From the NCBI GenBank assembly GCA_022711395.1, contig JAKLFA010000002.1:323864-387863 (forward strand): DNA of 64,000 nucleotides. Direction: 5' to 3'. Below, piece after piece: positions 8,164-26,884 of this stretch. Position numbers and translations under genes: made by a program. This DNA is from Candidatus Omnitrophota bacterium. Lineage in GTDB: Bacteria; Omnitrophota; Gorgyraeia; Zapsychrales; JANLHA01. Every line of letters begins with the position of its first letter. Position 1 is the stretch's first letter. The notes beneath the pieces are model-generated. The model was not told where the DNA came from. It made no database searches and saw only the letters and a list, made by a program, of their open reading frames with translations.

Positions 8164-8193
8164 TTGCAAAGCGGGAACAACGGGTGCTATACT
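8164..8193 (+). promoter_or_regulatory. Sigma70-like promoter (TTGCAA-N18-TATACT) driving the riboswitch leader
   Basis: -35 TTGCAA at 8164-8169 and -10 TATACT at 8188-8193, about 10 nt upstream of the conserved RNA core. Confidence 0.4.
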
Positions 8194-8204
8194 TTAGATG
8201 ACAA

Positions 8205-8358
8205 TTTGAATAGTAAACTACTCGAAAGAGTAGGGCACAAAGCCGTGAGCCTAAGTCCTTTGCCATGTGAGGATATGGCTGTCTGGTTACCGTAACTCGA
8301 AATTTAAGTGAGTTCCGTTAATCGAAAAAGCCCTTCTCCTCTTTCAGAAGGGTTTTTT
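8205..8358 (+). promoter_or_regulatory. c-di-GMP-I (GEMM) riboswitch, copy A. The aptamer is about 8205-8322 and is followed by an intrinsic-terminator expression platform (stem 8331-8352, U-run 8353-8358).
   Basis: AAACUACUCGAAAGAGUAGGGCACAAAGCCGUGAGCCUA…CUGGUUACCGUAAC matches the GEMM-I consensus (AAACC..UCGAAAGA..GGGACGCAAAGCC…GGGGUUACCGAUGG): a GAAA-tetraloop P1 hairpin, the CAAAGC core and the GUUACCG 3' element. A second copy lies at 25.9 kb with compensatory stem changes. Confidence 0.65.
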
Positions 8359-8386
8359 CAATTAGGGGGCTCGGAAAGGGGCCAAA

Positions 8387-8629
8387 ATGATTAGAAAACT
8401 CTTTTTTCTGATCGTCCTTTTCAGCCTGGTCAACACATCGGCAGCGTTCTGTGAAACCTCGTCTTTCAAGGTCTCGGTGACGATCCCGCGGATCGTGGGG
8501 GTCAATTATTTCCCCCAGGACAGTGAGATCGCCTCCAGCCAGGGCAAGAAAGGCCAAGCGGATTTCACGGAACAGGTGATCTTCAGGAATGGACAGGAAG
8601 TCCTTCTGAAGACACATGTAGAAAAATAG
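8387..8629 (+). CDS. Small secreted protein (80 aa with a signal peptide) directly downstream of riboswitch A
   Basis: GGAAAGGGG RBS then ATG at 8387. N-terminal signal peptide MIRKLFFLIVLFSLVNTSAA. No recognisable domain. Confidence 0.55.
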   Translation: MIRKLFFLIVLFSLVNTSAAFCETSSFKVSVTIPRIVGVNYFPQDSEIASSQGKKGQADFTEQVIFRNGQEVLLKTHVEK

Positions 8630-8646: not shown

Positions 8647-8710
8647 AAACCCCGTTGCCGTTCAACTAGGAGGTTCCGAGTAACTCGTGGCGCGGGGTTT
8701 TCTATTTTTT
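8647..8710. terminator. Bidirectional intrinsic terminator between the convergent small ORF (+) and the large OMP gene (-)
   Basis: AAACCCCG…CGGGGTTT outer stem with an inner paired region. It is flanked by an A-run on one side and a T-run on the other, so it can terminate on both strands. Confidence 0.5.
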
Positions 8711-11700
8711 GATGGACACTGGGACGTGCAGCATATAGGTCGTCCCTTCGCTCACTTCAATCTTGTGTTCTAAAGCGATATTAGGCAAGTACTGCAAAGG
8801 GATCGAATTGATGTCGATCCTCAGGACATGTTTTCCATCCGCGATATTATTGAAAAAATACGCCCCTCTCATGTCGCTGGATGACGTCAACTCTCCATCG
8901 AGGACCACTCTAACGTTGGCAAGTTTTTCTTCATTGGCGTCCGGGACCTTGTTTCCATTGGTGTCCACAAAAACGATCCCGTAGATCCCGGAACGCGTTG
9001 CCAGCGCGATGTCATGGTCAATAACATCCTTATGCTTGATCTCGAACTCTTCCTGAGACTGGTCTTGAAAGACGTACCCATCCGGGACCGTGTCAAAATC
9101 CAGCCCGATAACGAGCGTGCGCGCCTTGATCTGTGTGTAATACCATCCCGCCTCATCTGTCACGGCGGAATCCTCTCCGATCAGGACCCGAACACCGGCA
9201 ACACCGGGTTCCCCATCATCCTTGCGGCCGTTGGAATTGACGTCCTTAAAGACATGTCCCTGCACCAGAGCGGACGGGTTCCAGGCAAAACCCAAATCCC
9301 AGGTTGAACGCATCCCGAAATTCAAGCTTGCTTCTGTGTATGACGTGTTATTCAGGTTCTCCGACCAAATGTCCCGCAACCGTCCATCCACATAAATATC
9401 AACATCCTGATTCGGCGAGAACGTCAACCCGCTGCTTGTGGTCAAACTGTCTTCCCCGGCCAAAAAGCTCTTTTCACTTTCAGTGCGCTGCTCATCCCGG
9501 TACGAAAGGCCGGCGTTCCAGCGCCACTGGTCATTGATGGCCCTGCGATAGCTTAACGCCGAATAGAACACCGACGGATAGACCGTATCTGAAGGATCGC
9601 CGCGGTCTTTGACATAATACTGTTCATAGCTGTTTGAAAAGCTCAAGTTGTTGGTCAGAGAATATTGCGACCCAACCGTAATGCTGTTGCGGTCATAATC
9701 CGACTGCATATTGGAATCCGAACGGCGCAACTGCGTTGTGCCGGTGACATACGTTGAAAGGCTTCGAGAGAAGACATTAAACAGCCTTGAATAAGTCGTG
9801 CTTAAACGGGTGTCTGTGTCATCCGACAGAAGCCCGGGGCTGTGGAAATAATAGAAGTCGCTTCTCCAGGATGAGCGGTCTTCAAAAGGAAGATAAACAT
9901 TGGCGTTAAAATCCGTGTTAACGGCATCGGGGTTTTCAGGGTTTTCGATCTGGTGGTCCCGGTAAAGGTCCAGGTAGGTGTTAAAATCAAAACGTTCAAA
10001 CGCCTTACGGTAAATAAATTCCGTTCCCACTTCGCCTTGCCCTGCGGGAGCCCCGCTCACGTTGGCGTAGCCAGAGGGAATATTACGGGCCCGGACCTCA
10101 AAGCTGGTCTCATCATCCATGATATAATTCATCCGGGCTTTTTGCGCCATCTCATCTTCATCATGAGCGAATTCCGTGAACAACGAAACGTTTTCGTTGA
10201 ACTTGTTCTCCGTTTCCACGGAAACCGTCCGGTCCTTGGCGAACCGGGATTTATCATCCCCCCAGGCCCTGGCGTAATTGATCCCCAGCCCGAAATCATC
10301 GCTGGGTTTATACTTCATCCGCAGGCCTTCGACGTAGGATTCGTTTTTAGATGATATCGTCGGTGAAGCCACTGTTCCGTAAGTCGATCGGGCCTGCCCG
10401 CGCAGGATGGTATAACTCACTTCATCATAATAGACTTTGTCCTGGAACAGAACACCGCGGATCTGGCGGCCCGGCAATGTCAGGTCGCTGAAATGGGTCG
10501 TCGAATCAAAAAGGCGCAGATGAAAATCATCGACCATGGCGATATTGCCATCTGAAAGCCCCATGGTATAGTAGGTCGCCTCCGTTGGATCAAGATCTGT
10601 TTTATGAAGTGTGACCGCCCCGTCCAGATTTCCGTAAGGAGTGGGCCCGTAAAGACCGAAATTGTTGACAAAATTCAAAGAATCCCGGTCAAGATTGTCC
10701 TTGCTGTCCCCGGAATAATTCGTGTACCAGCTGGTGTCATAGGTGAATTTGAAATGCTCCACGGAGCCTTGCCGCTTGGGAGCATACAGCTGTTCCTTTT
10801 CAATGGTCTTGACGGGAAGGACCATCTTCAGGGTGAACGTCCATCGTCGCCCGGAATCTTCCCAGATATGCAAAAAAGTCTGGCTGCGCATGACAGGCGA
10901 GATTTCAATTTCAGTGCGGCTTGACTGAGCGATATCGATCACTTCAGGCGCGGTGACCAGAAAACGGCTGATCCGGTCATAGGAGCGGATCACGAGTTTC
11001 GTGTCTAAAGGCAATTCGATCAATGTGTTGGGCTGTTGTCCCCAAAGATAATCGGTCAATTCGATCAGTTCAACAGGAAATGTCTTGTCCGCCATGGCTG
11101 GAGCACGCAAAGTCCCGTCATCATCCAAATCATCACTCCCGGAAATTTGTGCGCGAGTCCCCAATGATGTTTTTTCAACGGCCGATGGCCAATCCGGATC
11201 GCTCTCAGCAAGGGCCGCGGCAGGCGTTTTTTCAGGACGTTGCTTCACGGCATCACGGACGATCTCCTCAGATGGCGATGTTTGACCCGAGGTCTTCGAT
11301 AAATCCGGCGCTGTTAAAGACCTGACAGGCTTGCCGGCAACGGCAGGCTTTGATGTGACGCGTTCTGGCGAAATGTTTCTGTCAGGCAGAACCGGGGCCG
11401 TTTTCTCCTTGCGGTCGGAGATCGGTCCTTTTTCCTGAACCGGCAGATCCTCAATGCGGTTCTCGATCAAACGCTTTACAAGATTGATATAGTGGACGAG
11501 CTCCGGATCGCCGGGCTGCACACTTTGAGCGGTTTCAAAAAAAAGCAGGGCCCGCTGATAATCCCTTTTTTCAAGGGCCTCAAAAGCAAGCTCCCGATAA
11601 TTTTGATAGATCGTGGAGTATTGCGCAAAGGCAGGGCCCGGCATGGGTTCCGTAAAACTTAGCCCAAACCCTATCGTGGTCAAAACGAAAATATGGATGA

Positions 11701-11716
11701 GTTGTTGACGTCTCAT
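8702..11716 (-). CDS. 1004-aa outer-membrane protein: signal peptide, TPR-like N-domain, long Pro/Ser/Thr-rich linker, a small periplasmic domain, a large (about 550 aa) beta-barrel and two C-terminal SdrD-B/CarboxypepD_reg-like beta-sandwich domains. Candidate usher-like assembly platform.
   Basis: Signal peptide MRRQQLIHIFVLTTIGFGLSF…AFAQ; TPR-like …YQRALLFFETAQSVQPGDPELVHYINLVKRL…; alternating aromatic beta-strand pattern across about 550 aa; C-terminal repeats …VQGHVFKDVNSNGRKDDGEPGVAGVRV… and …IYGIVFVDTNGNKVPDANEEKLANVRVVL…. Confidence 0.45.
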   Translation of the reverse strand: MRRQQLIHIFVLTTIGFGLSFTEPMPGPAFAQYSTIYQNYRELAFEALEKRDYQRALLFFETAQSVQPGDPELVHYINLVKRLIENRIEDLPVQEKGPISDRKEKTAPVLPDRNISPERVTSKPAVAGKPVRSLTAPDLSKTSGQTSPSEEIVRDAVKQRPEKTPAAALAESDPDWPSAVEKTSLGTRAQISGSDDLDDDGTLRAPAMADKTFPVELIELTDYLWGQQPNTLIELPLDTKLVIRSYDRISRFLVTAPEVIDIAQSSRTEIEISPVMRSQTFLHIWEDSGRRWTFTLKMVLPVKTIEKEQLYAPKRQGSVEHFKFTYDTSWYTNYSGDSKDNLDRDSLNFVNNFGLYGPTPYGNLDGAVTLHKTDLDPTEATYYTMGLSDGNIAMVDDFHLRLFDSTTHFSDLTLPGRQIRGVLFQDKVYYDEVSYTILRGQARSTYGTVASPTISSKNESYVEGLRMKYKPSDDFGLGINYARAWGDDKSRFAKDRTVSVETENKFNENVSLFTEFAHDEDEMAQKARMNYIMDDETSFEVRARNIPSGYANVSGAPAGQGEVGTEFIYRKAFERFDFNTYLDLYRDHQIENPENPDAVNTDFNANVYLPFEDRSSWRSDFYYFHSPGLLSDDTDTRLSTTYSRLFNVFSRSLSTYVTGTTQLRRSDSNMQSDYDRNSITVGSQYSLTNNLSFSNSYEQYYVKDRGDPSDTVYPSVFYSALSYRRAINDQWRWNAGLSYRDEQRTESEKSFLAGEDSLTTSSGLTFSPNQDVDIYVDGRLRDIWSENLNNTSYTEASLNFGMRSTWDLGFAWNPSALVQGHVFKDVNSNGRKDDGEPGVAGVRVLIGEDSAVTDEAGWYYTQIKARTLVIGLDFDTVPDGYVFQDQSQEEFEIKHKDVIDHDIALATRSGIYGIVFVDTNGNKVPDANEEKLANVRVVLDGELTSSSDMRGAYFFNNIADGKHVLRIDINSIPLQYLPNIALEHKIEVSEGTTYMLHVPVSIKK

Positions 11717-11738: not shown

Positions 11739-12578
11739 TTATTGCGTGGCGATCACCTTATAGCTCACGCCTGTTTTGCTGAATTCCACTTCCGTGACAG
11801 AAGACGCCCCATCCTCCAGGTCAAAGGTCAGGACCGTCAAATATCGCCCATCATCCGCGACCCCCGAAGAAAGCTTGATCTCAAATTGAGCATCACTGCC
11901 AGCAGGAAGATAGATCTTATCAGCCTCCCCTCGGTCAGCGGGCACCCCTGAGCCGGAATTCAAAATATAAAACAAGGGCGTGATCACGAGGGTGACGTTC
12001 CCCTGGTTCTTTACGGTCCCACGCATGGTCCCGCCTTCAATGTTGATATCCGAAACCGCGATCTTTTTGGTCCGGTCATTGGTCTCAACAAAGAACAGGG
12101 TCCCCACCCTCGACAGGACCGTAAGCCCCGCTTTACTGCCCTCCCCGACCGGCGTCAGACCGCCATCCAGGATCGTCTTCTCCATAAATAATACGCAATA
12201 GTATCCCCCGTCCGCGTCTGCCGGCATGTTGATCGTGTAATTGATCTTTTTCTGTGAAAATGGCGGAATATGCACGGTCTGCGGATAAAAATTGATCCAC
12301 TGGCTGCAGGAATCAGACACTGTCCCTGACGGAAAAAATTCTTTTTTACCTCTGAATGGCGGAATATAACGGAAGTCCTCAAAATAGACCGTCAGGTCGA
12401 TCGCTTCGTTGCCGGTATTGTGGACCGTCAAGGCATCGGCCGTTTTTTGGGCCGGCGCCAATGAGAGTTTGACCTTTCCCTGCTCAACCAGGACTTGGGC
12501 GTCCGCGAAAGGGATCATCACCCAGCAGTAAAACCACATGATAAGCAGGATTTTTTTAACGCTTTTCCGCATCGTCAT
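11739..12578 (-). CDS. Periplasmic protein, candidate PapD-like pilus chaperone (two Ig-like domains inferred)
   Basis: Signal peptide, and an N-terminal …QGKVKLSLAPAQKTADALTVHNTGNEAIDLTVYFEDF… that resembles the chaperone N-domain pattern. A …TPLFY… segment and operon context next to pilin-like and OMP genes also support it. The call is weak from sequence alone. Confidence 0.3.
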   Translation of the reverse strand: MTMRKSVKKILLIMWFYCWVMIPFADAQVLVEQGKVKLSLAPAQKTADALTVHNTGNEAIDLTVYFEDFRYIPPFRGKKEFFPSGTVSDSCSQWINFYPQTVHIPPFSQKKINYTINMPADADGGYYCVLFMEKTILDGGLTPVGEGSKAGLTVLSRVGTLFFVETNDRTKKIAVSDINIEGGTMRGTVKNQGNVTLVITPLFYILNSGSGVPADRGEADKIYLPAGSDAQFEIKLSSGVADDGRYLTVLTFDLEDGASSVTEVEFSKTGVSYKVIATQ

Positions 12579-18825: not shown

Positions 18826-19200
18826 TCAGATGTTTTGGTCGATCGCTTGAATAAGCTCTTCGACCGTGCAGGGCTTGGCAAGGAAAGGATAACCTGAAAT
18901 GAACCCGTCTTCCTGATTGACTTCGGATTTCCGCACCGTCGCGGTCAAAAAAATGATCGGGATCTGAGCTGTTTGTTCGTTTTCCCGAAGCTGACAAAGC
19001 ACGTCCGGACCTTCCATCTCCGGCATGATAATATCCAACAGGATCAGTTCCGGCCGGTATCCCAAAGCCGTCTCAAACGCCCGGGTCGAATCATTTTCGA
19101 TCCGCACAAGAAAACGGCCGGTATCCTCAAGGTTCAGCTTCACCATTTCGGTGAAACCAACCTCATCATCCACGATCAATATGCGTTTTGGTTCTGTCAT
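18826..19200 (-). CDS. Single-domain response regulator (CheY-like receiver)
   Basis: …ILIVDDE…LILLDIIMPEMEG…FLAKP… is the canonical D-D-T/K receiver pattern. It overlaps the upstream kinase gene by 4 nt (ATGA). Confidence 0.85.
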   Translation of the reverse strand: MTEPKRILIVDDEVGFTEMVKLNLEDTGRFLVRIENDSTRAFETALGYRPELILLDIIMPEMEGPDVLCQLRENEQTAQIPIIFLTATVRKSEVNQEDGFISGYPFLAKPCTVEELIQAIDQNI

Positions 19201-20393
19201 TTCCCGTTGACCTTAAAGACCAGCCTGGCGCGAGCGCCCTGCTTGTCTTCCTTATTGGCCAGATCGATCATCCCGCCATGCGAATCCATGATCGTCCGGG
19301 CGATCGACAATCCCAGCCCGACGCCTCCCGCGGCCCGGTGTGTGGTAAAGAAGGGATCGAATATTTTTTCAAGATATTCATCCGGGATGCCTTTTCCTGT
19401 GTCCTCAAAATCCACGATCAGGACATCTTCCCCGACCGCGATCGAATCCGTCAGATTGGATGCCACCGAAATGTCGGACCGGTCAAAGATCTTGCGCGTG
19501 GTGCGGATCGTGAGCGTGCCTCCGTTTTTCATCACCGCGATCGCGTTGAGGATCAGATCAACGACAACTTGCTCGATACGGTTCTTGTCGATCAAGACAT
19601 TCGGAAGGTTGGTGGCAAAATGTTTGACGATCTTGATCTGGAATTTTTCGCACTGATGATGCGTGAGGACCAGCCCCTGCTCGATCGTTCGCTCGATCGG
19701 GCAGAGGTCTCTCTTGATATCTGAAAGGCTGGCAAAATCCAAAAGGTCTTTGATAATGCTGTTGGCCTTATACGCCGCGTCCTTGATGGAACGCAGGGTC
19801 AGCTCGATCTTGTCATCCCCGTCTTTAAGGACCGTGTTGAGATATTCCACCCCGTAAAGGATCGTTGCCAGGGGATTTTTGACCTCATGAGCGATCCCGC
19901 TCGCGACGCCACCGACCACGTTCATTTTTTCCGCGCGGATCAGCTGGGCCTGCATTTCTTTCAGCTCATCCATGGCCTTGTGCAGTTCAGTCTCCGCCTT
20001 CTTTCGTTCGATCGCGTAATAAAGCGCCTTGACCAGCCCATAGGACTTATACATCCCCTTGATCAAATAATCCTGGGCGCCCATCGTCACCGCCCTCAGG
20101 CCAAGATCGTCCTGGTACTCACCCGTATTGACGACAACCGCCAGTTGCGGATAGCGGCCATGAAGGCGCTTTAACGTATCAATCCCGTTACTGTCCTTGA
20201 TATTCAGGTCAAGAAGAACAACATCCACCAGGCTTTGCTTTAGAAGTTCGAATGTTTCCTGCAGGGAATCCGTGGCGCTGATCTGAAACGAACCATATGG
20301 AGCTTTGGAGAGCATGTTGATAAGGACCGCCCGATCGACATCATTGTTCTCGACGATCAAGACTTGAAGGGTCCGCTTCAGCTCAGTATCCAT
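19197..20393 (-). CDS. Hybrid sensor histidine kinase with an N-terminal receiver domain followed by HisKA and HATPase_c domains
   Basis: Receiver (…VLIVENNDVDR…VVLLDLNIKDSNG…); H-box …GIAHEVKNPL…; N/G boxes (…DTGKGIPDEYLEKIFDPFFTT…GGVGLGLSIAR…). Confidence 0.85.
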   Translation of the reverse strand: MDTELKRTLQVLIVENNDVDRAVLINMLSKAPYGSFQISATDSLQETFELLKQSLVDVVLLDLNIKDSNGIDTLKRLHGRYPQLAVVVNTGEYQDDLGLRAVTMGAQDYLIKGMYKSYGLVKALYYAIERKKAETELHKAMDELKEMQAQLIRAEKMNVVGGVASGIAHEVKNPLATILYGVEYLNTVLKDGDDKIELTLRSIKDAAYKANSIIKDLLDFASLSDIKRDLCPIERTIEQGLVLTHHQCEKFQIKIVKHFATNLPNVLIDKNRIEQVVVDLILNAIAVMKNGGTLTIRTTRKIFDRSDISVASNLTDSIAVGEDVLIVDFEDTGKGIPDEYLEKIFDPFFTTHRAAGGVGLGLSIARTIMDSHGGMIDLANKEDKQGARARLVFKVNGK

Positions 20394-21420: not shown

Positions 21421-21969
21421 TTACTTTGCGAGGGTCGCTTTCCCTTTTTCATCGATCAGGATCTCCGTGATGATACGGCCTTCACGATCGAACTTCCGTT
21501 TGCGCCTTAAAAGGCCGTCTTTATACTCCAGTTGATAAAGCAGATGTCCATCGTCGTCAAACTGATCATAAACACCCTCCATCTCCGTAAAACGCACCGC
21601 CCGTTTGGAAGAACCTTCCGTGATGGTCTCTCCCTGCCCGTCCTGGCCCGTAAACGCTTTCTGATCATATTCTTTTTGCGCGATATCAAGTTCCCGCTGC
21701 CGAAAGATCATCTGTCGGGCCTGGAACAAGATCAATAAACCTGCCAGGCATCCGCCGCAAATGATCAGCGAGAAGCGCAGCGCGCGGCTGGCCCGCTGTT
21801 CCCTCGCCTTCAAGGCGTCATAGATGTGGATGACCAGGGCCTCTTCACTGATCCTTCCCGCGGAATAGATCTTGTCCAGGCGCATCCCAAGCGAGCTTGC
21901 CAGAAGTTCCAATTCCCGCAACCGGACCTTTTTATCAGGAAGATTCAGGATAAGGTCTAATTTTCTCAC
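21421..21969 (-). CDS. Membrane-anchored protein, unknown function
   Basis: Single central TM helix (…FSLIICGGCLAGLLILF…). Overlaps the start of the next gene. Confidence 0.4.
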   Translation of the reverse strand: MRKLDLILNLPDKKVRLRELELLASSLGMRLDKIYSAGRISEEALVIHIYDALKAREQRASRALRFSLIICGGCLAGLLILFQARQMIFRQRELDIAQKEYDQKAFTGQDGQGETITEGSSKRAVRFTEMEGVYDQFDDDGHLLYQLEYKDGLLRRKRKFDREGRIITEILIDEKGKATLAK

Positions 21970-22784
21970 ACGCGCTCCTGGGCCTTAAAATGATTTTTGC
22001 ACAGATCGATAAAGGCCTGGTCGACCCAGCGGCCCATGTAGGATGTTCCGCCCGCCTTTAAAAAGGCCGCCGCGTCCTCCTCGATCTTCAGGACCTGCCT
22101 GCGGCTCAGCGGATCATCCAACTGCCCGGTCTGATAATAGGAAAAACCGATCACCGGCTTCGACGAGAACCCATGGACATGCCGGAGGACCTCCATGAAC
22201 TCGGAAACCGGTTTGTCCAGCTGCACATCCGTGAACACAATATCAGGCGCTTCTTCGATGACCGAGGCCACGGCCTGAGAAACAGAGGTGGACAGGCGCG
22301 TCTTAAAGCCCTGCTCCTGCGCCAGAGCCGCCATCTGATGGAGCTGGACATGATAATCGGACCGTCCGACCAGAAGGACCTTGGAAACAGAACGGACAAA
22401 AACGGGCCGGTCAACCGTTTTGGCGCCGGCGAGAGCGCCTTCAATAGCGTCTAAAAGTTCTTGGGGAGTGAACGGTTTTGTGATAAATCGATCGACCCCG
22501 ACCGCGCCGAACGAATCTTTCATCTGGCCGCGCCCGGAGATGACGATCACCGGGATCGGACTGGTCTCATAGGCGCGCCTGATCTCCTTAAAGAGGGAAA
22601 ACCCGTCCATCTGCGGCATCAGCACATCGGTCAGGATAAGGTCTGGCGAATGTTCAGAAAGGATGTCCAGCGCGGCTTTTCCGTTCTCCGCGCAGGAAAC
22701 GCGGTATCCCCGCTTCTCCAGGATCGAACGGGTCGAACTCAGGATATCCGGATCATCGTCAACGATCAAAATATGTTTGCTCAT
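21966..22784 (-). CDS. Response regulator with an N-terminal receiver plus a second, receiver-like (likely degenerate) domain and no DNA-binding domain
   Basis: …ILIVDDDPDIL…PDLILTDVLMPQMDGF…IPVIVIS…FITKPF… is a receiver. It is a paralogue of the 24683-25486 gene. Confidence 0.75.
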   Translation of the reverse strand: MSKHILIVDDDPDILSSTRSILEKRGYRVSCAENGKAALDILSEHSPDLILTDVLMPQMDGFSLFKEIRRAYETSPIPVIVISGRGQMKDSFGAVGVDRFITKPFTPQELLDAIEGALAGAKTVDRPVFVRSVSKVLLVGRSDYHVQLHQMAALAQEQGFKTRLSTSVSQAVASVIEEAPDIVFTDVQLDKPVSEFMEVLRHVHGFSSKPVIGFSYYQTGQLDDPLSRRQVLKIEEDAAAFLKAGGTSYMGRWVDQAFIDLCKNHFKAQERV

Positions 22785-22797
22785 GACAGAGTCTCAC

Positions 22798-24552
22798 CTA
22801 TGAGGCGTTCACGTCACGAAAAACAGCCCCGGTATCAGCGCTGGTCACCAGGGAAGCATAACGGGCAAGCCAGCCGCCTTTGACCTTGATCTTAAACGGC
22901 TCTAATTTTTTAAGGCGCTTGGCGATCTCTTTATCCGCCAGTTCCACATCCATCGTGCGCTTCTTGACATCGATGGCGATCATATCGCCGTTCTGAATGA
23001 TGGCCATCTCGCCGCCAGCCGCGGCTTCCGGAGCCACATGGCCGATGCACAGCCCCCTCGTCCCGCCGGAAAACCGCCCGTCCGTAATAAGGGCGGCCTT
23101 GATCCCGGCGCCCTTGAGCGCGGATGTGGGAGAAAGCATCTCCTGCATGCCGGGACCTCCTTTGGGACCTTCATAACGGATCACGACCACATCGCCATCC
23201 TTGACTTTTTTGTTCAGGATCGCGGCGAGGGCCTCTTCCTGCGATTCATAAACTTTGGCCGGCCCGCGGAACTTGAGCATGTCCTCATCCACACCGCTGG
23301 TCTTAAGGACCGCGCCGTTCCTGGCAAAATTACCGGTCAGGATCGTCAATCCACCTTCCTGAGAGAACGCCTTCTCCACGGTCCGGATCACGTCCCCGTC
23401 CGGGCCCGGGGACCTGTTGACATAATCCCCCAGCGTTCCGTAAACGGTCGGAGCATCCAGCTTCAAATACTTGTGCCCGTGGTCGGCGATCGGCTTCAAG
23501 ATCGCCCCCATTCCTCCCAACCGATGGACATCTTCGATGTGCACATCCGGGCGCGACGGCGCGATCTTGACGACGTTTGCCGTGGCGCGCGAGATCTTAT
23601 CGATACGGTTGATGTCATACTTCAGGCCCGCTTCACTGGCGAGCGCCAAAACGTGCAGGACGGTATTCGATGAGCCGCCCATGGCCATATCCAGCGTAAA
23701 AGCATTGTCGACCGCGTCCCGCGTGATGATATCCAAGGGCCGGACCTTCTCATTCATGAGCCTGATCAAAGTTCTCGCCGAATTGCGGACCAGCTCGATC
23801 CTGTCGGGATTCAGCGTATGCTGACGCTTCGCCCCTTCCACGCGGACCGTGGCCGGGGTTGAACCGTTGCCGGGAAGCGCCACTCCTAAAATTTCTGAAA
23901 GACAGTTCATGGAATTGGCCGTGAACATTCCCGAACAGCTGCCATACCCGGGACAGGCGACTTCCGTCAACTTCCTTAAATCTTCTTCGGACATTTTACC
24001 GACGGATTCTTTGCCTACGCCCTCAAAAACCGTGATCAGGTCCGTATTGTTCAACCCCGAAAGCATGGGTCCGCCGCTCACATAGATCGCCGGAATGTTG
24101 ATGCGGACCATGGCATTGAGCATCGCCGGCACGATCTTATCGCAGTTGCCGATGCCGATCCATGCGTCACAGGGATGCGCGCCGATGATCGTTTCGATCT
24201 GGTCCGCGATCAGCTCGCGCGACGCCAGCGAATATTTCATCCCGAAATGCCCCATCGCGATCCCGTCGCAGACAGCCCCGCCGATATTGGCATACCAGAC
24301 ATTGACGCCCAGCTTTTCGAGCTCCGCCTTGGCGATCGCCCCCAGCTGGTCCAGATGGGCGTGGCCGGGGATCTGGTTCGTGTAAGAATTGATGATCGTC
24401 ACGAACGGACGCTTTAAGTCGACCGCGTCCTTCAAAACGCCCTCCGCCATCATGAGCGAAACACATGGCAGCATATGGTTGCCGGAGCGGAACACCCCGC
24501 TTCCGTTTTTACGGACACTTTCGATCCCCTGATTAATAACTCGTTTTGACAT
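22798..24552 (-). CDS. ilvD: Dihydroxy-acid dehydratase
   Basis: MSKRVINQG… N-terminus, the …CDGIAMGH… cluster ligand region and the …[17 protein letters not shown]… C-terminal motif. ATG at 24552. Confidence 0.9.
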
Positions 24553-24682
24553 TTGATTCCTCTCTTCTCGTTTACAAATCTCAATACACAAATCACACCA
24601 ATAAACCTTGCCTTATCTTACACGAACCAAAAGAATCGTCAAAGTCCTAGTTGAAATTTCTGACGTCCTATGAAGGGTATTG

Positions 24683-25486
24683 CTAAAGATATTTGGAGAT
24701 CTGTTCCAAAAAGGATTGTTCATTGAACCGGTCAACATATTCGGTCGCGCCGGCCATCATCGCCTCCTGTGCGCAGCGCTCGATCACGGCCGCCCGTTTG
24801 CGGAATTCCGCAGACGCCAGATCGCTGACGCGGTAATAACTGTAGATCAGGATCGGTGTTTCTTCATGATGCGGGAACAGCCGGATCGCCTTGACCACGT
24901 CCTGCACTGAACGGCCATCCTCCAGCTGCGCTTCCAAAATGATCACATCGGGCTGAAAATTGACCACATGGACCAGGATATCCGCCGCGGTCTTGGCGTT
25001 CTGAACGTGGTATCCTTGCGAATTGAGCCCCTTGATGATGCTTTCACAGACCTCAGGATACGTCCCGAAAACCAGGAATTTCTGGGCCGCCTTCTTGAAA
25101 TGCCCGTGGCTGCCGTAATGGGCGAGCGTTTTATCGATCGTCGACAGCAGAACGTTCGGGGCGCTGGGCTTTTCTAAGAATCCGGCGACCCCTAAAGCGG
25201 CGAAAGCGTCCTCCATTTTTCCTCTGGCGGTCAGAACGATCACAGGGATCTCTTTTGTTTGAGGGTGCTCCCGAAGGGCCTTACAAAAGACGAATCCGTC
25301 CATTTCAGGCATGAGGACATCGGTCAAAATCAGATCAGGGTGGGCTTTTTTCAATAGATCAAGGGCTTCGGTCCCGTTGCCGGCCTGTAACACGATGTGC
25401 CCGGCGGTCTCAAGGTTCAAGGCAAGCATCTGCCGTTCGGCAGCTTCATCTTCAACAACCAGGATAATGGCCATTGTTCCCTCCAT
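24683..25486 (-). CDS. Response regulator with a receiver plus a second receiver-like domain (paralogue of the 21966-22784 gene)
   Basis: …ILVVEDEAAER…PDLILTDVLMPEMDGF…IPVIVLT…FLEKP…. Shares PDLILTDVLMPxMDGF and IPVIV segments with its paralogue. Confidence 0.75.
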   Translation of the reverse strand: MEGTMAIILVVEDEAAERQMLALNLETAGHIVLQAGNGTEALDLLKKAHPDLILTDVLMPEMDGFVFCKALREHPQTKEIPVIVLTARGKMEDAFAALGVAGFLEKPSAPNVLLSTIDKTLAHYGSHGHFKKAAQKFLVFGTYPEVCESIIKGLNSQGYHVQNAKTAADILVHVVNFQPDVIILEAQLEDGRSVQDVVKAIRLFPHHEETPILIYSYYRVSDLASAEFRKRAAVIERCAQEAMMAGATEYVDRFNEQSFLEQISKYL

Positions 25487-25534
25487 TCATAGTATACAAT
25501 CAAAATATTGAGAATGAAGGGCTTTTCAAAAAAC

Positions 25535-25792
25535 TTAACGCCGTACCAATTTCTGGTACGTGATGACCTCATAACGTGTTTCAATGACCGGCCGGTAGAT
25601 GACCTTGGTCGTAACACGCTCTCCGCCTGAAACGCTCATGGAGACCTTAAGAGGCCTGTGAAAACTTTTTCCCGAGTAGGATCCGGAAGCGGCCTGGGCC
25701 TCTGAAACAGGCTTGACCGAACCGGAAATAAAAATGAACAGCAAAACTGCGGCCGCGATCAGCCACGCTCCCATGGAACGTTCGTCACGCAT
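25535..25792 (-). CDS. Small secreted protein (85 aa) directly downstream of riboswitch B
   Basis: GGAAAAGGGGG RBS then ATG (MRDERSMGAWLIAAAVLLFIFISGS…) after the terminator hairpin. Has a signal peptide. The track ORF start at 25846 would overlap the terminator. Confidence 0.5.
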   Translation of the reverse strand: MRDERSMGAWLIAAAVLLFIFISGSVKPVSEAQAASGSYSGKSFHRPLKVSMSVSGGERVTTKVIYRPVIETRYEVITYQKLVRR

Positions 25793-25814
25793 AGGTGCCC
25801 CCTTTTCCGGCAAT

Positions 25815-25975
25815 AAAAAAGCCCTCCGAAAGATCAGAGGGCACAATATTGCCTTAACGGAACTGGTTAGCGTTAGTTACGGCAGCCAGACAGCCATACC
25901 CAGCGGCCACGGAGGGCGCTGGGGGTAGGCTCACGGCTTTGTGTCCTACTCTTTCGAGTAGTTTACCTTTGAAAC
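25815..25975 (-). promoter_or_regulatory. c-di-GMP-I (GEMM) riboswitch, copy B. The aptamer is about 25975-25854, with an intrinsic terminator (stem 25842-25821, U-run 25820-25815 on the minus strand).
   Basis: Minus-strand RNA …GGUAAACUACUCGAAAGAGUAGGACACAAAGCCGUGAGCCUACCCCCAGCG…CGCUGGGUAUGGCUGUCUGGCUGCCGUAACU…AGUUCCGUUAA. It is near-identical to copy A in the conserved core; the variable hairpin differs but keeps its pairing (CCCAGCG/CGCUGGG here versus UCCU/AGGA in copy A). Confidence 0.65.
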
Positions 25976-26014
25976 GGACTATAAAAGAACAAGTGAGAGA
26001 GCTGCTTCACTTTA

Positions 26015-26044
26015 AGTATGCCATATTCAAGGAAGCGCTTTCAA
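26015..26044 (-). promoter_or_regulatory. Sigma70-like promoter (TTGAAA-N18-CATACT) for riboswitch B
   Basis: Hexamers on the minus strand with the same spacing and arrangement as the copy-A promoter. Confidence 0.35.
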
Positions 26045-26141: not shown

Positions 26142-26884
26142 ATGGGGATATTCCAAAAATTTCAAAAAATGGTTTGGCGCCTTAAGAACCGCAAAATACG
26201 CAAGACCCGCCATATTTTCAAGGACTACGGCTACATCGTCAAAAAGCTCACCCTTCCCAAAGACGGTGTTTTTAAATACGCCCGCTGGCTTCATCCGGCC
26301 TGCGGGAACCTTCATTTTTCGCAACAAGCTATGGACTCGCTCAGATCCATGATCAAACCCGGCGATACCGTGATCGATATCGGCGCGCAGACCGGTGACA
26401 CCACCCTTCCTTGAACATCCTCCCCTTCTGTTTCGCGGCCACGGATGAGGATGGGGAATACGAGTTCCATTATTCGGACGCGTCTTTTTGCAACGGCGGA
26501 AATCTCAACGGGCTTGAAAACGACATCGACCATCGCTACCCTTTAAAAGTCGCGGGAAAAAATCTGAACCGCTTCTTATCAGCCCAATATCCCCATCTGT
26601 TAAAAAACCTGTCTTTTATCAAGATCGACACCGAGGGCCACGACCGGGACGTCCTTCTTTCGATCAAAGAGATCATCCGTCAGCACCGGCCGGTCATCCG
26701 GACAGAGGTCATGAACCGCCTCTCGGCGGATGAGGCCATGGCGCTCTATGATACGTTAACGGAAATGCAGTATCGAAAGATCTTTGAATACCAGGAAAAT
26801 GGGGAAAGTATTTGCGGGCCCGCCATCACGCGGGAAACAGTTAAAAAAGACCGGACCTATGACCTCATCGCCTTACCGTCTTAA
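26142..26884 (+). pseudogene. FkbM-family SAM-dependent methyltransferase gene split by a frameshift near 26396-26420 (two ORFs of 90 and 157 aa)
   Basis: N-terminal ORF carries …VIDIGAQTGDTTLP* and the downstream ORF (other frame) continues …FCFAATDEDGEYEFH…IKIDTEGHD… (FkbM hallmark). Combined length is about 247 aa, the full-length family size. Confidence 0.55.

Follow-up and report, generated by a model that had tools for sequence, protein, structure and literature searches.

Does the leader of a small secreted-protein gene in an Omnitrophota bacterium carry an intact cyclic di-GMP (c-di-GMP) riboswitch, and in which direction would it switch the gene? The stretch that raises this question, hereafter the window, comprises 64,000 nucleotides (nt) of a Candidatus Omnitrophota bacterium (GenBank assembly GCA_022711395.1, contig JAKLFA010000002.1, forward-strand positions 323,864 to 387,863). 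An initial annotation had described one GEMM-like riboswitch on the plus strand of the window (copy A) and a second on the minus strand (copy B), the latter preceding an open reading frame (ORF) of 85 amino acids (aa) with a signal peptide and, behind it, a response regulator gene. In our analysis, an intact class-I riboswitch in the 5′ leader of the mRNA for the 85-aa secreted protein was the best explanation overall, with a probability of roughly 0.8.

Cmscan with Rfam 15 detected exactly two RNA-family matches in the window, and both were to RF01051 (c-di-GMP-I, or GEMM-I). Copy A matched at 8202-8294 on the plus strand with 67.6 bits, and copy B matched at 25977-25878 on the minus strand with 67.0 bits (E 6e-11), spanning the full model (positions 1-87 of 87). 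The gathering score of RF01051 is 35 bits, so the covariance model bore out the GEMM-like assignment for both copies. Furthermore, the copy B leader (231 nt) was identical in four independent assemblies.

Ligand recognition by this class is well described. In the Vc2 structures, the adenine A47 is intercalated between both ligand bases. Specificity is determined by two residues: G20 pairs with G-alpha at its Hoogsteen face, and G-beta is Watson-Crick paired to C92 (PMC6140456, PMC5888326). A47 also touches the ligand (PMC5888326). Nuclear magnetic resonance of Vc2 gave the pairs G21-C46 and C22-G45 at the P1b base, and G14-C93, C13-G94, A12-U96 and G11-C97 in P1a (PMC11705072). Because of the pairs G21-C46 and C22-G45, G20 corresponds to the nucleotide directly 5′ of the P1b closing pair. 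In copy B this nucleotide is G, and the A47 and C92 equivalents are A and C (Table 1). The P1b stem-loop reads CUACUC-GAAA-GAGUAG. The 11-nt motif CCUAAG...UAUGG is present unaltered in copy A, and the receptor-like loop of P2 in copy B has a variant of it, CCUAC...GUAUGG; the GAAA tetraloop is predicted to dock into this loop. A U.U in P2 is conserved among the aptamers of the clade. In clan competition RF01051 was the best family for copy B, and the variant model RF03167 (c-di-GMP-I-GGC) did not outscore it; A47 is unaltered, and copy B thus shows neither the altered contacts nor the higher variant score that would mark a variant class. A further variant class of the clan is c-di-GMP-I-UAU. 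With G20, A47 and C92 all in place, copy B is by prediction a canonical c-di-GMP-type class-I aptamer, and it very probably serves as a c-di-GMP-I riboswitch for the small ORF. It is an intact member of a well-known family, and the annotation is solid; it is not a new kind of element.

The two leaders were 77% identical over ~300 nt in pairwise alignment. They were letter-identical through GUAAACUACUCGAAAGAGUAGG.CACAAAGCCGUGAGCCUA and UAUGGCUGUCUGG.U.CCGUAACU, so the nearly base-for-base core described in the initial annotation was found again: the P1b hairpin (100%), J2/3, lower P2 and the 3′ junction strand were identical. Distal P2, in contrast, was wholly different in sequence and paired in both, as CCCAGCG/CGCUGGG in copy B and UCCU/AGGA in copy A. 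This covariation had been taken to argue for a structured RNA rather than a repeat. That conclusion held; covariation between two copies is, however, weak support in itself, and the real support comes from the covariance model of the family and from the relatives described below.

P4, the X box and the predicted direction of switching

About 20 related riboswitch loci were gathered from two pattern scans, filtered with blastn and cmscan, and from look-ups of small-protein homologues; the metagenome scan with the X-box pattern had returned 62 loci, mostly chance matches, before this filtering. The related loci came mostly from Omnitrophota metagenome-assembled genomes (MAGs), and one came from a Planctomycetales MAG. 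All 14 distinct clade sequences compared shared a hairpin, P4, that lies outside the Rfam model. Its base consists of C93-G and G94-C, followed by a mismatch at 95, A96-U and A97-U, and 4-11 further covarying pairs; distally, compensatory changes (among others C-G to A-U and U-A to C-G) preserve the pairing. Behind P4 comes CG-UUAA, and a CCGUUAA box was invariant in 14 of 14. In copy B the pairs are C93-G and G94-C, a U95xC mismatch, and then AACU/AGUU. The P4 3′ strand together with the invariant CGUUAA forms the X box, the exact 10-mer of which is confined, within the window, to the two riboswitches. The X box is complementary to the Shine-Dalgarno (SD) region of the 85-aa ORF in two ways, with GUUCC matching the segment GGGGC and UUCCG matching the adjacent CGGAA.

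The base of P4 mirrors P1a of Vc2, which likewise has two G-C pairs at the junction and then a bulge at 95. Two readings of P4 are offered by the relatives: it could be a competitor of a leader-formed P1 (an anti-P1), or it could itself be the P1-equivalent helix. In A-type relatives a conserved TATACT -10 element puts the transcription start ~12 nt before position 20, and therefore there is no room for a conventional 5′ P1 strand, which fits P4 as the putative P1-equivalent helix. L052-type relatives have G and C at the equivalents of G14 and C13, with a 5-nt J1/2, inside a covarying 5′ hairpin. In copy B, the leader segment AGUCCG nearly repeats the X-box strand AGUUCCG and could form a 5-bp P1 with a 1x2 loop and a 7-nt J1/2; alternatively, P4 pairs C93/G94 in cis. 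The B-type orthologue L028 has AGUCAG in place of AGUCCG, so the leader P1 pairing is without clear constraint. L028 (1863-2014) also carries a 52-nt tandem duplication within the aptamer (CACAAAGCC...GGGUAUGGCU twice), either a real P2 duplication or an assembly artefact.

The putative promoter upstream of copy B, TTGAAA-N18-CATACT, was present as annotated and implies a transcription start near 26008. Relatives have TATACT at the position of CATACT, and copy A has a promoter-like TTGCAA-N18-TATACT at 8164-8193. The order of a terminator followed by a ribosome-binding site, also noted initially, was found again (Table 1).

We then folded the copy B leader and its tail. In the minimum free energy (MFE) folds, the X strand paired with the SD region to give a long helix with the terminator hairpin at its tip. 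The tail folded freely with an MFE of -41.4 kcal/mol, with X (GUUCC) paired to SD (GGGGC) and a mean unpaired probability of the SD of 0.33. When P4 was enforced, the energy was -33.9 kcal/mol and the SD was 0.61 unpaired, a cost of 7.5 kcal/mol. A leader-formed P1 was mimicked by a block on the P1 3′ strand, and this left the copy B fold unchanged. The ligand is bound with a Kd in the nM-pM range (PMC6140456, PMC5888326), and by conversion to energy we infer that such a ligand would gain more on binding than the 7.5 kcal/mol that P4 costs.

These folds suggest a scheme in which ligand occupancy of the junction would set the pairing partner of the P4 3′ strand, AGUUCCG, with its anti-SD-like UUCC. 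Without ligand, P4 would be weak; AGUUCCG would pair with the SD region in the long helix, the terminator hairpin would sit at the tip, and the SD would be masked. Binding of c-di-GMP would lock the junction together with the helix that stacks below C92; the anti-SD strand would be kept in P4, and the freed SD would allow translation. Because only the model in which the ligand locks P4 gave a working switch, copy B behaves in silico as an ON switch at translation. That c-di-GMP turns translation on is nevertheless a tentative call, to which we give somewhat less than even odds; what is left beyond this and the OFF scheme below falls to ligand-independent or other schemes.

The terminator-like hairpin itself has the form of an intrinsic (rho-independent) terminator, being a G+C-rich hairpin directly followed by TTTTTT, and its activity is a prediction. 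Its stem is extendable by the flanks GGCAAUA and UAUUGCC. In two further B-type lineages, L003 and L091, the stem is kept through U.G/U-A swaps, and therefore the hairpin appears to be under selection. It formed in every modelled state, whether either terminator strand was blocked or the aptamer was enforced, and no antiterminator was found in folds up to the terminator under the same constraints. Its presence in every modelled state makes the hairpin look constitutive, an attenuator or scaffold, and not the step that is regulated.

Several other pairings were considered and set aside. In copy B, the P2 loop (GCCCUCCG) could pair over 8 bp with the 3′ strand of the terminator, which was judged a coincidence; L003 alters the terminator strand with the stem pairing retained and the P2-loop pairing lost. 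A pairing of the copy A P1b 3′ strand with its own terminator 5′ strand was likewise rejected, as a relative of copy A (L034) alters P1b without a matching terminator change. Another relative, L085, at first resembled a clean ON switch in which P4 is the terminator; with no more than 2 G-C pairs, its hairpin did not pass as a terminator in the prediction, and L085 was given no weight in setting the direction. Separately, the leader segment AGCUCUCU of copy B resembles the terminator 5′ strand, and no function could be assigned to it. The leader AGCUCUCUCAC (25991-26001), the P2 loop GCGCCCUCCGUGG (25908-25920) and the terminator 5′ strand GUGCCCUCUGAUC (25834-25846) are alike, and all three are complementary to one terminator 3′ strand. 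In copy A, the terminator stem (8331-8365) is flanked by A5 and U6 and is terminator-like on both strands, so that antisense transcripts arriving from the convergent 1004-aa gene might be terminated there as well.

Several points weigh against an ON switch built in this way, or against a working switch altogether. The terminator is predicted in all states with no antiterminator to oppose it, and were it efficient, few transcripts started at the riboswitch promoter would get through to the ORF. In A-type models, the accessibility of the SD hardly changes. L003 and L091 keep the 3′ leader yet score below the Rfam threshold; therefore the conserved part may work without c-di-GMP. Ligand binding and regulation in copy B are themselves predicted from sequence and folds. 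Finally, Cd1 of Clostridioides difficile is a transcriptional OFF switch (PMC9262584), as are the class-I riboswitches that precede small proteins in C. difficile (bioRxiv 10.64898/2026.06.10.731418), and by analogy copy B may be one as well.

The strongest competitor, possible though unlikely in our estimate, is such a Cd1-like OFF switch. Here c-di-GMP would stabilize a leader P1 (AGUCCG, 25980-25975, with CGUAACU) and dissolve P4, and the freed X would clamp the SD. In the ligand-free state, P4 with its UUAA extended onto U90/R91 would hold X, the aptamer would be unfolded and the SD open. The close likeness of the leader AGUCCGUU to the X box AGUUCCGUU and the canonical P1 geometry of L052-type relatives fit a logic in which the ligand frees X: in the latter, the G and C stand exactly at G14 and C13 of Vc2, and the strand lies in the covarying 5′ hairpin, a possible second competitor. 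As read from the sequences, the UUAA after the P4 base can pair with U90/R91, which suggests that an extended P4 might serve as an anti-aptamer helix in the free state. In Cd1, moreover, the aptamer is compatible with the terminator, and the strand that changes partners is the 3′ strand of P1 (PMC9262584). However, P4 of copy B has just 4+2 bp and a 10-nt loop and is 7.5 kcal/mol worse than X:SD, and X:SD forms at equilibrium with or without the leader P1, which leaves no switch unless control is kinetic. L028 also has a C to A change in the proposed P1 strand, and A-type relatives are without any such strand.

Mosaic conservation of the leader and the specificity position

Three B-type lineages were compared: the window, L003 (1-175) and L091 (1-199). 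Between them, the small protein was 56-58% identical in aa and 66-67% in nt, and the receiver (REC) gene behind it ~69% in aa and 69-70% in nt. The 3′ 150 nt of the leader (window 25793-25942, from J2/3 ACAAAGCC to the base before ATG), in contrast, were 92-97% identical, and the leader is under strong selection (92-97% versus 66-70% for the flanking genes). Most substitutions in this block were compensatory (P2 distal G-C to A-U, terminator swaps), fell in the tetraloop-receptor loop, or were single-base changes or indels in or beside loops; L091 has the G-C to A-U compensatory change in the P2 distal stem and one substitution that makes the stem flanks GGCAAUA/UAUUGCC pair less well. Copy B and L091 were only 47% identical in nt, near the chance level, over the 5′ third of the aptamer (J1/2, G20, P1b). 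L091 scored 29.2 bits and L003 24.7 bits against the Rfam threshold of 35. L091 retains canonical remnants (G-GC-GAA ... GAC-AAAGCC) with a broken P1b stem. The divergent 5′ ends were also considered as assembly chimeras, and this was rejected: a repeat-broken contig would still show a canonical P1b, and L091 keeps remnants. Two histories are conceivable: c-di-GMP sensing may have been lost in the L003 and L091 lineages while very strong selection continued on the remaining leader, or an A-type copy may have restored a canonical P1b in the window lineage through gene conversion, an option on which the identity of P1b in copies A and B bears.

This mosaic keeps alive a ligand-independent explanation, which we consider improbable. 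The leader would then attenuate constitutively, or P2, P4, the X box and the terminator would together make up a ~190-nt product, either a terminated small RNA or a protein-binding platform, and the c-di-GMP aptamer would be an accessory that is intact in the window lineage only. It would account for 3′ 150 nt that are nearly identical in three lineages beside an unrelated 5′ third, for the sub-threshold scores of L003 and L091, for a terminator that is present in all modelled states, and for the conservation of loops and linkers, which is unusual for a plain expression platform. Against this, the window aptamer is complete, high-scoring and identical in four assemblies, the aptamer helix P2 keeps its pairing through compensatory change, the P4/X architecture accompanies intact aptamers in all A-type relatives, and neither a trans target nor a binding protein suggests itself.

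At the specificity position, copies A and B are not alike. The equivalent of position 20 is A in copy A (8212) and G in copy B, and among close orthologues of copy A it is C in L076 and L020 and G in L034 and L088; to our knowledge, C at this position is not among the described variants. Copies A and B may therefore not sense the same ligand, and the single c-di-GMP regulon that had been suggested for the window is not established. Some relatives depart further from the model. L081 (80-173) matched c-di-GMP-I-GGC (RF03167) best, with 51.3 bits, below the threshold of 59 of that family. L077 (4949-5073), L074 (7104-7226) and L082 (2322-2447) carry ~35 extra nt that form two added hairpins; the insertion point is the internal loop of P1b, with the GAC bulge on one side and the closing GC on the other. 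These aptamers still scored 39-46 bits.

In GEMM-Ib RNAs, which sense 3′,3′-cyclic GMP-AMP (3′,3′-cGAMP) or are bispecific, A replaces G20 (A14 in Gs1761; PMC6140456). That copy B senses 3′,3′-cGAMP or another dinucleotide is very improbable: GEMM-Ib aptamers were originally annotated as c-di-GMP-I (PMC9262584) and the paralogous copy A has A at this position, but copy B has G at 25967 together with A47 and C92, wild-type G20 Vc2 binds cGAMP at ~10 μM versus pM for c-di-GMP (PMC6140456), and c-di-GMP-I was the top-scoring clan family for copy B. Least probable of all is the reading of copy B as a dead duplicate or a dispersed repeat that regulates nothing, which the 77% identity of the two window copies might recall and which the comparative data already appear to contradict through the full-model match, the compensatory changes in P2 and P4, the extreme conservation relative to neighbouring genes and the constant position before an ORF with promoter and SD.

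Taken together, the relatives would also allow a broader scheme, speculative and rather unlikely as a whole: a GEMM-I clade of Omnitrophota and Planctomycetota with a rearranged junction, in which P4, stacked under C92 and with an anti-SD 3′ strand, replaces P1, the 5′ end enters at J1/2, the P2-P4-X-terminator-SD block is a module, and G, A or C at the specificity position of the paralogues means different cyclic-dinucleotide inputs for different modules of small secreted proteins.

Genes around the riboswitch

Table 1. Features of the copy B locus in window coordinates
Feature	Position	Strand	Basis or remark
Sigma-70-like promoter TTGAAA-N18-CATACT, extended -10 TG (putative)	26015-26044	-	9/12 consensus matches
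Leader segment AGUCCG, candidate 5′ P1 strand pairing with CGUAACU (25881-25875)	25975-25980	-	sequence reading
c-di-GMP-I (GEMM-I) aptamer	25878-25977	-	RF01051 full-model match
G20 equivalent, G	25967	-	RF01051 model position 11, just 5′ of P1b closing pair
P1b hairpin GUAAACUACUC-GAAA-GAGUAGGACAC	25941-25966	-	GAAA tetraloop 25955-25952
A47 equivalent, A	25940	-	RF01051 alignment
P2 helix, tetraloop-receptor-like internal loop CCUAC...GUAUGG, distal stem CCCAGCG/CGCUGGG	25884-25938	-	
C92 equivalent, C	25882	-	RF01051 alignment
P4 hairpin, loop AACGCUAACC	25858-25881	-	starts directly after C92
X box AGUUCCGUUAA, P4 3′ strand + invariant CGUUAA	25854-25864	-	comparison of relatives
Terminator-like hairpin GCCCUCUGA-UCUU-UCGGAGGGC + U6	25815-25842	-	9 bp, 6 G-C, 4-nt loop
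Shine-Dalgarno region GGAAAAGGGGG, 5 nt before ATG (25792)	25798-25808	-	invariant in L003, L091
85-aa ORF	25535-25792	-	Sec-type signal peptide (...SEAQA|AS, by eye), 51-aa basic mature part, isoelectric point 10.4
TGTATACT, extended -10-like element in 48-nt spacer before REC gene	25491-25498	-	conserved in L003, L091
Stand-alone response regulator	24683-25474	-	canonical N-terminal REC, degenerate C-terminal REC-like, no output domain

The 85-aa signal-peptide ORF of the initial annotation is called as a gene in public assemblies, and three further variants keep the frame, the signal peptide and a C-terminal VITYQK(L/I)VRR. No Pfam or NCBIfam family matched the protein. Besides the window protein itself, a word-indexed search of 5.8 billion proteins and a HMMER profile search of 1.84 billion representatives turned up just two relatives, the homologue P0002 and the representative P0045; a DNA search supplied the L028 variant. 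AlphaFold2 gave the protein a predicted local distance difference test score (pLDDT) of 55 with the signal helix only, which is uninformative.

The small protein of copy A (8387-8629, plus strand) is one of 42 members of a family of secreted proteins that are 71-132 aa long and unannotated, with an N-terminal motif FxVSxTIP and a C-terminal motif RNxQxVxLxTxVV[KRL] (in full, F-Q/K-V/L-S-x-T-I/V-P ... R-N/D-x-Q-x-V-x-L-x-T-x-V-V-K/R/L). AlphaFold2 predicted a C-terminal beta hairpin for it at low confidence (pLDDT 70, predicted template modelling score 0.25). The initial annotation had seen two paralogous modules of riboswitch and small protein. The riboswitches are indeed paralogous, but the proteins have no homology detectable by BLASTP (no match) or by profile-sequence and profile-profile comparison with hhalign (probability 4.4% and 0.3%), and they share the general layout only: a signal peptide, a short mature part and a C-terminal strand with a basic end. 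The theme of riboswitch-led small secreted proteins nevertheless extended to all ten newly fetched loci of the copy-A family, each with a c-di-GMP-I-clan match upstream, nine above the RF01051 threshold and one (L081) with GGC as its best model. Wherever the contig reaches (loci L082-L088), the gene of this family converges on a ~930-1060-aa protein with SdrD_B and, weakly, T2SS-T3SS_pil_N; in the window this is a 1004-aa protein (8702-11716, minus strand), followed by an Ig/Fn3-like 279-aa protein (11739-12578, minus strand). Beyond SdrD_B and weak Ig/Fn3-like matches, Pfam and NCBIfam gave nothing specific for the copy-A small protein or for the 1004-aa and 279-aa proteins. The copy-A family and its SdrD_B neighbourhood may represent an unrecognised surface-fibre or secretion system.

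Downstream of the 85-aa ORF, the ORF 24683-25486 had been read as a double-receiver regulator. Its first receiver is secure (Response_reg PF00072, E 1.5e-32, residues 8-117); the second is weak and has, by eye, ILEAQLEDG in place of the phospho-Asp motif, with Glu at the expected Asp, and no output domain and no specific family were found for the protein. The start is more likely the ATG at 25474, on which an SD GGAGGG and the 263-aa NCBI gene call agree. The riboswitch transcript may continue into this REC/pseudo-REC gene. However, TGTATACT and the SD in the spacer suggest that the gene could also be transcribed on its own, and because this promoter-like element is conserved, co-regulation with the small ORF is uncertain; a promoter scan of the spacer gave a different weak site, 25529-25502.

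The HD-GYP regulator that had been placed next to the modules was not recovered. A Pfam scan of 45 window ORFs (all of at least 180 aa that are not shadow frames within longer genes, plus a few shorter ones) detected no HD, GGDEF or EAL domain among ORFs of at least 180 aa, and a motif scan found no HD-GYP or GGDEF signature among window ORFs >120 aa. The nearest signalling genes are a REC-HisKA-HATPase gene (19197-20393) and a paralogous double-REC gene (21966-22784). The ilvD gene (22798-24591, minus strand) lies between the two paralogous REC/pseudo-REC genes (21966-22784 and 24683-25474, both minus strand), and the REC-HisKA-HATPase gene follows downstream on the same strand with several family-less ORFs, an odd mix of housekeeping and signalling genes. 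On the plus strand, an FkbM-type methyltransferase is split into two ORFs, 26142-26414 (90 aa) and 26411-26884 (157 aa), with a 4-nt overlap; only the second matches PF05050, both are separate genes in public assemblies too, and the split could be a frameshift or a genuine two-gene arrangement.

Comparison with known systems

Copy B adds cyclic-di-GMP riboswitch control to Omnitrophota, an uncultured phylum, and a literature search, which was not exhaustive, found no paper linking riboswitches to this phylum. The likely targets of the signal there are very small lineage-restricted secreted proteins, one of which adjoins a receiver-domain protein, while the other family adjoins a large outer-membrane-type protein. 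That several class-I riboswitches in one genome precede lineage-restricted small proteins is already known from C. difficile. Slightly beyond routine are the clade-specific P4/X-box platform, the mosaic leader conservation and G, A or C at position 20: the first two offer a handle on how a class-I aptamer is coupled to translation, and the third, occurring among close paralogues and orthologues, is a natural series for the study of ligand specificity. None of these findings changes the class of copy B, which is a textbook one.

Copy B resembles Vc2 and the RF01051 consensus in the full-model match, the P1b GAAA hairpin, the P2 receptor-like loop, G20, A47 and C92, and the place in a 5′ leader. 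It differs in that a conventional P1 between 5′ and 3′ strands is weak or absent, and P4 begins at C93-G94, like the two G-C pairs and subsequent irregularity of Vc2 P1a; the invariant CGUUAA after P4, the conserved U.U in P2 and the Omnitrophota host also set it apart. The GEMM-Ib aptamers (Gs1761, pilM of Geobacter; PMC6140456, PMC9262584) have the same fold and belong to the same Rfam clan; copy A shares their A20, whereas copy B has G20. In pilM the terminator overlaps the aptamer, giving an ON switch, but the terminator of copy B has no such overlap. Bc1 of Bacillus thuringiensis is likewise described as a class-I aptamer followed by a long multi-hairpin expression platform (PMC11218506); it has two rho-independent terminators 28 bp apart, whereas copy B has the non-terminator hairpin P4 and one terminator-like hairpin.

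Two further parallels come from C. difficile. As in Cd1, the aptamer and a separate downstream terminator can coexist, and the 3′ P1 strand has an alternative downstream partner. In Cd1 this partner is the 5′ strand of the terminator, forming an antiterminator, whereas in copy B it would be X, whose complement is the SD and not the terminator, an autonomous hairpin further downstream. The riboswitches Cdi1_6 and Cdi1_8 to Cdi1_11 with the 58-aa CD1980.2 family (bioRxiv 10.64898/2026.06.10.731418) share with the window the presence of several paralogous class-I riboswitches per genome, each preceding a lineage-restricted small protein with a hydrophobic N-terminus and an unknown fold. The CD1980.2 proteins, however, come from another phylum, are unrelated to those of the window and are near-identical paralogues, whereas the two proteins of the window have no detectable homology to each other. 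The C. difficile switches were shown experimentally to be OFF switches that act by termination, whereas copy B, as predicted from its sequence, would most probably join them as an intact class-I riboswitch and may differ from them in acting on translation through P4 and the X box.

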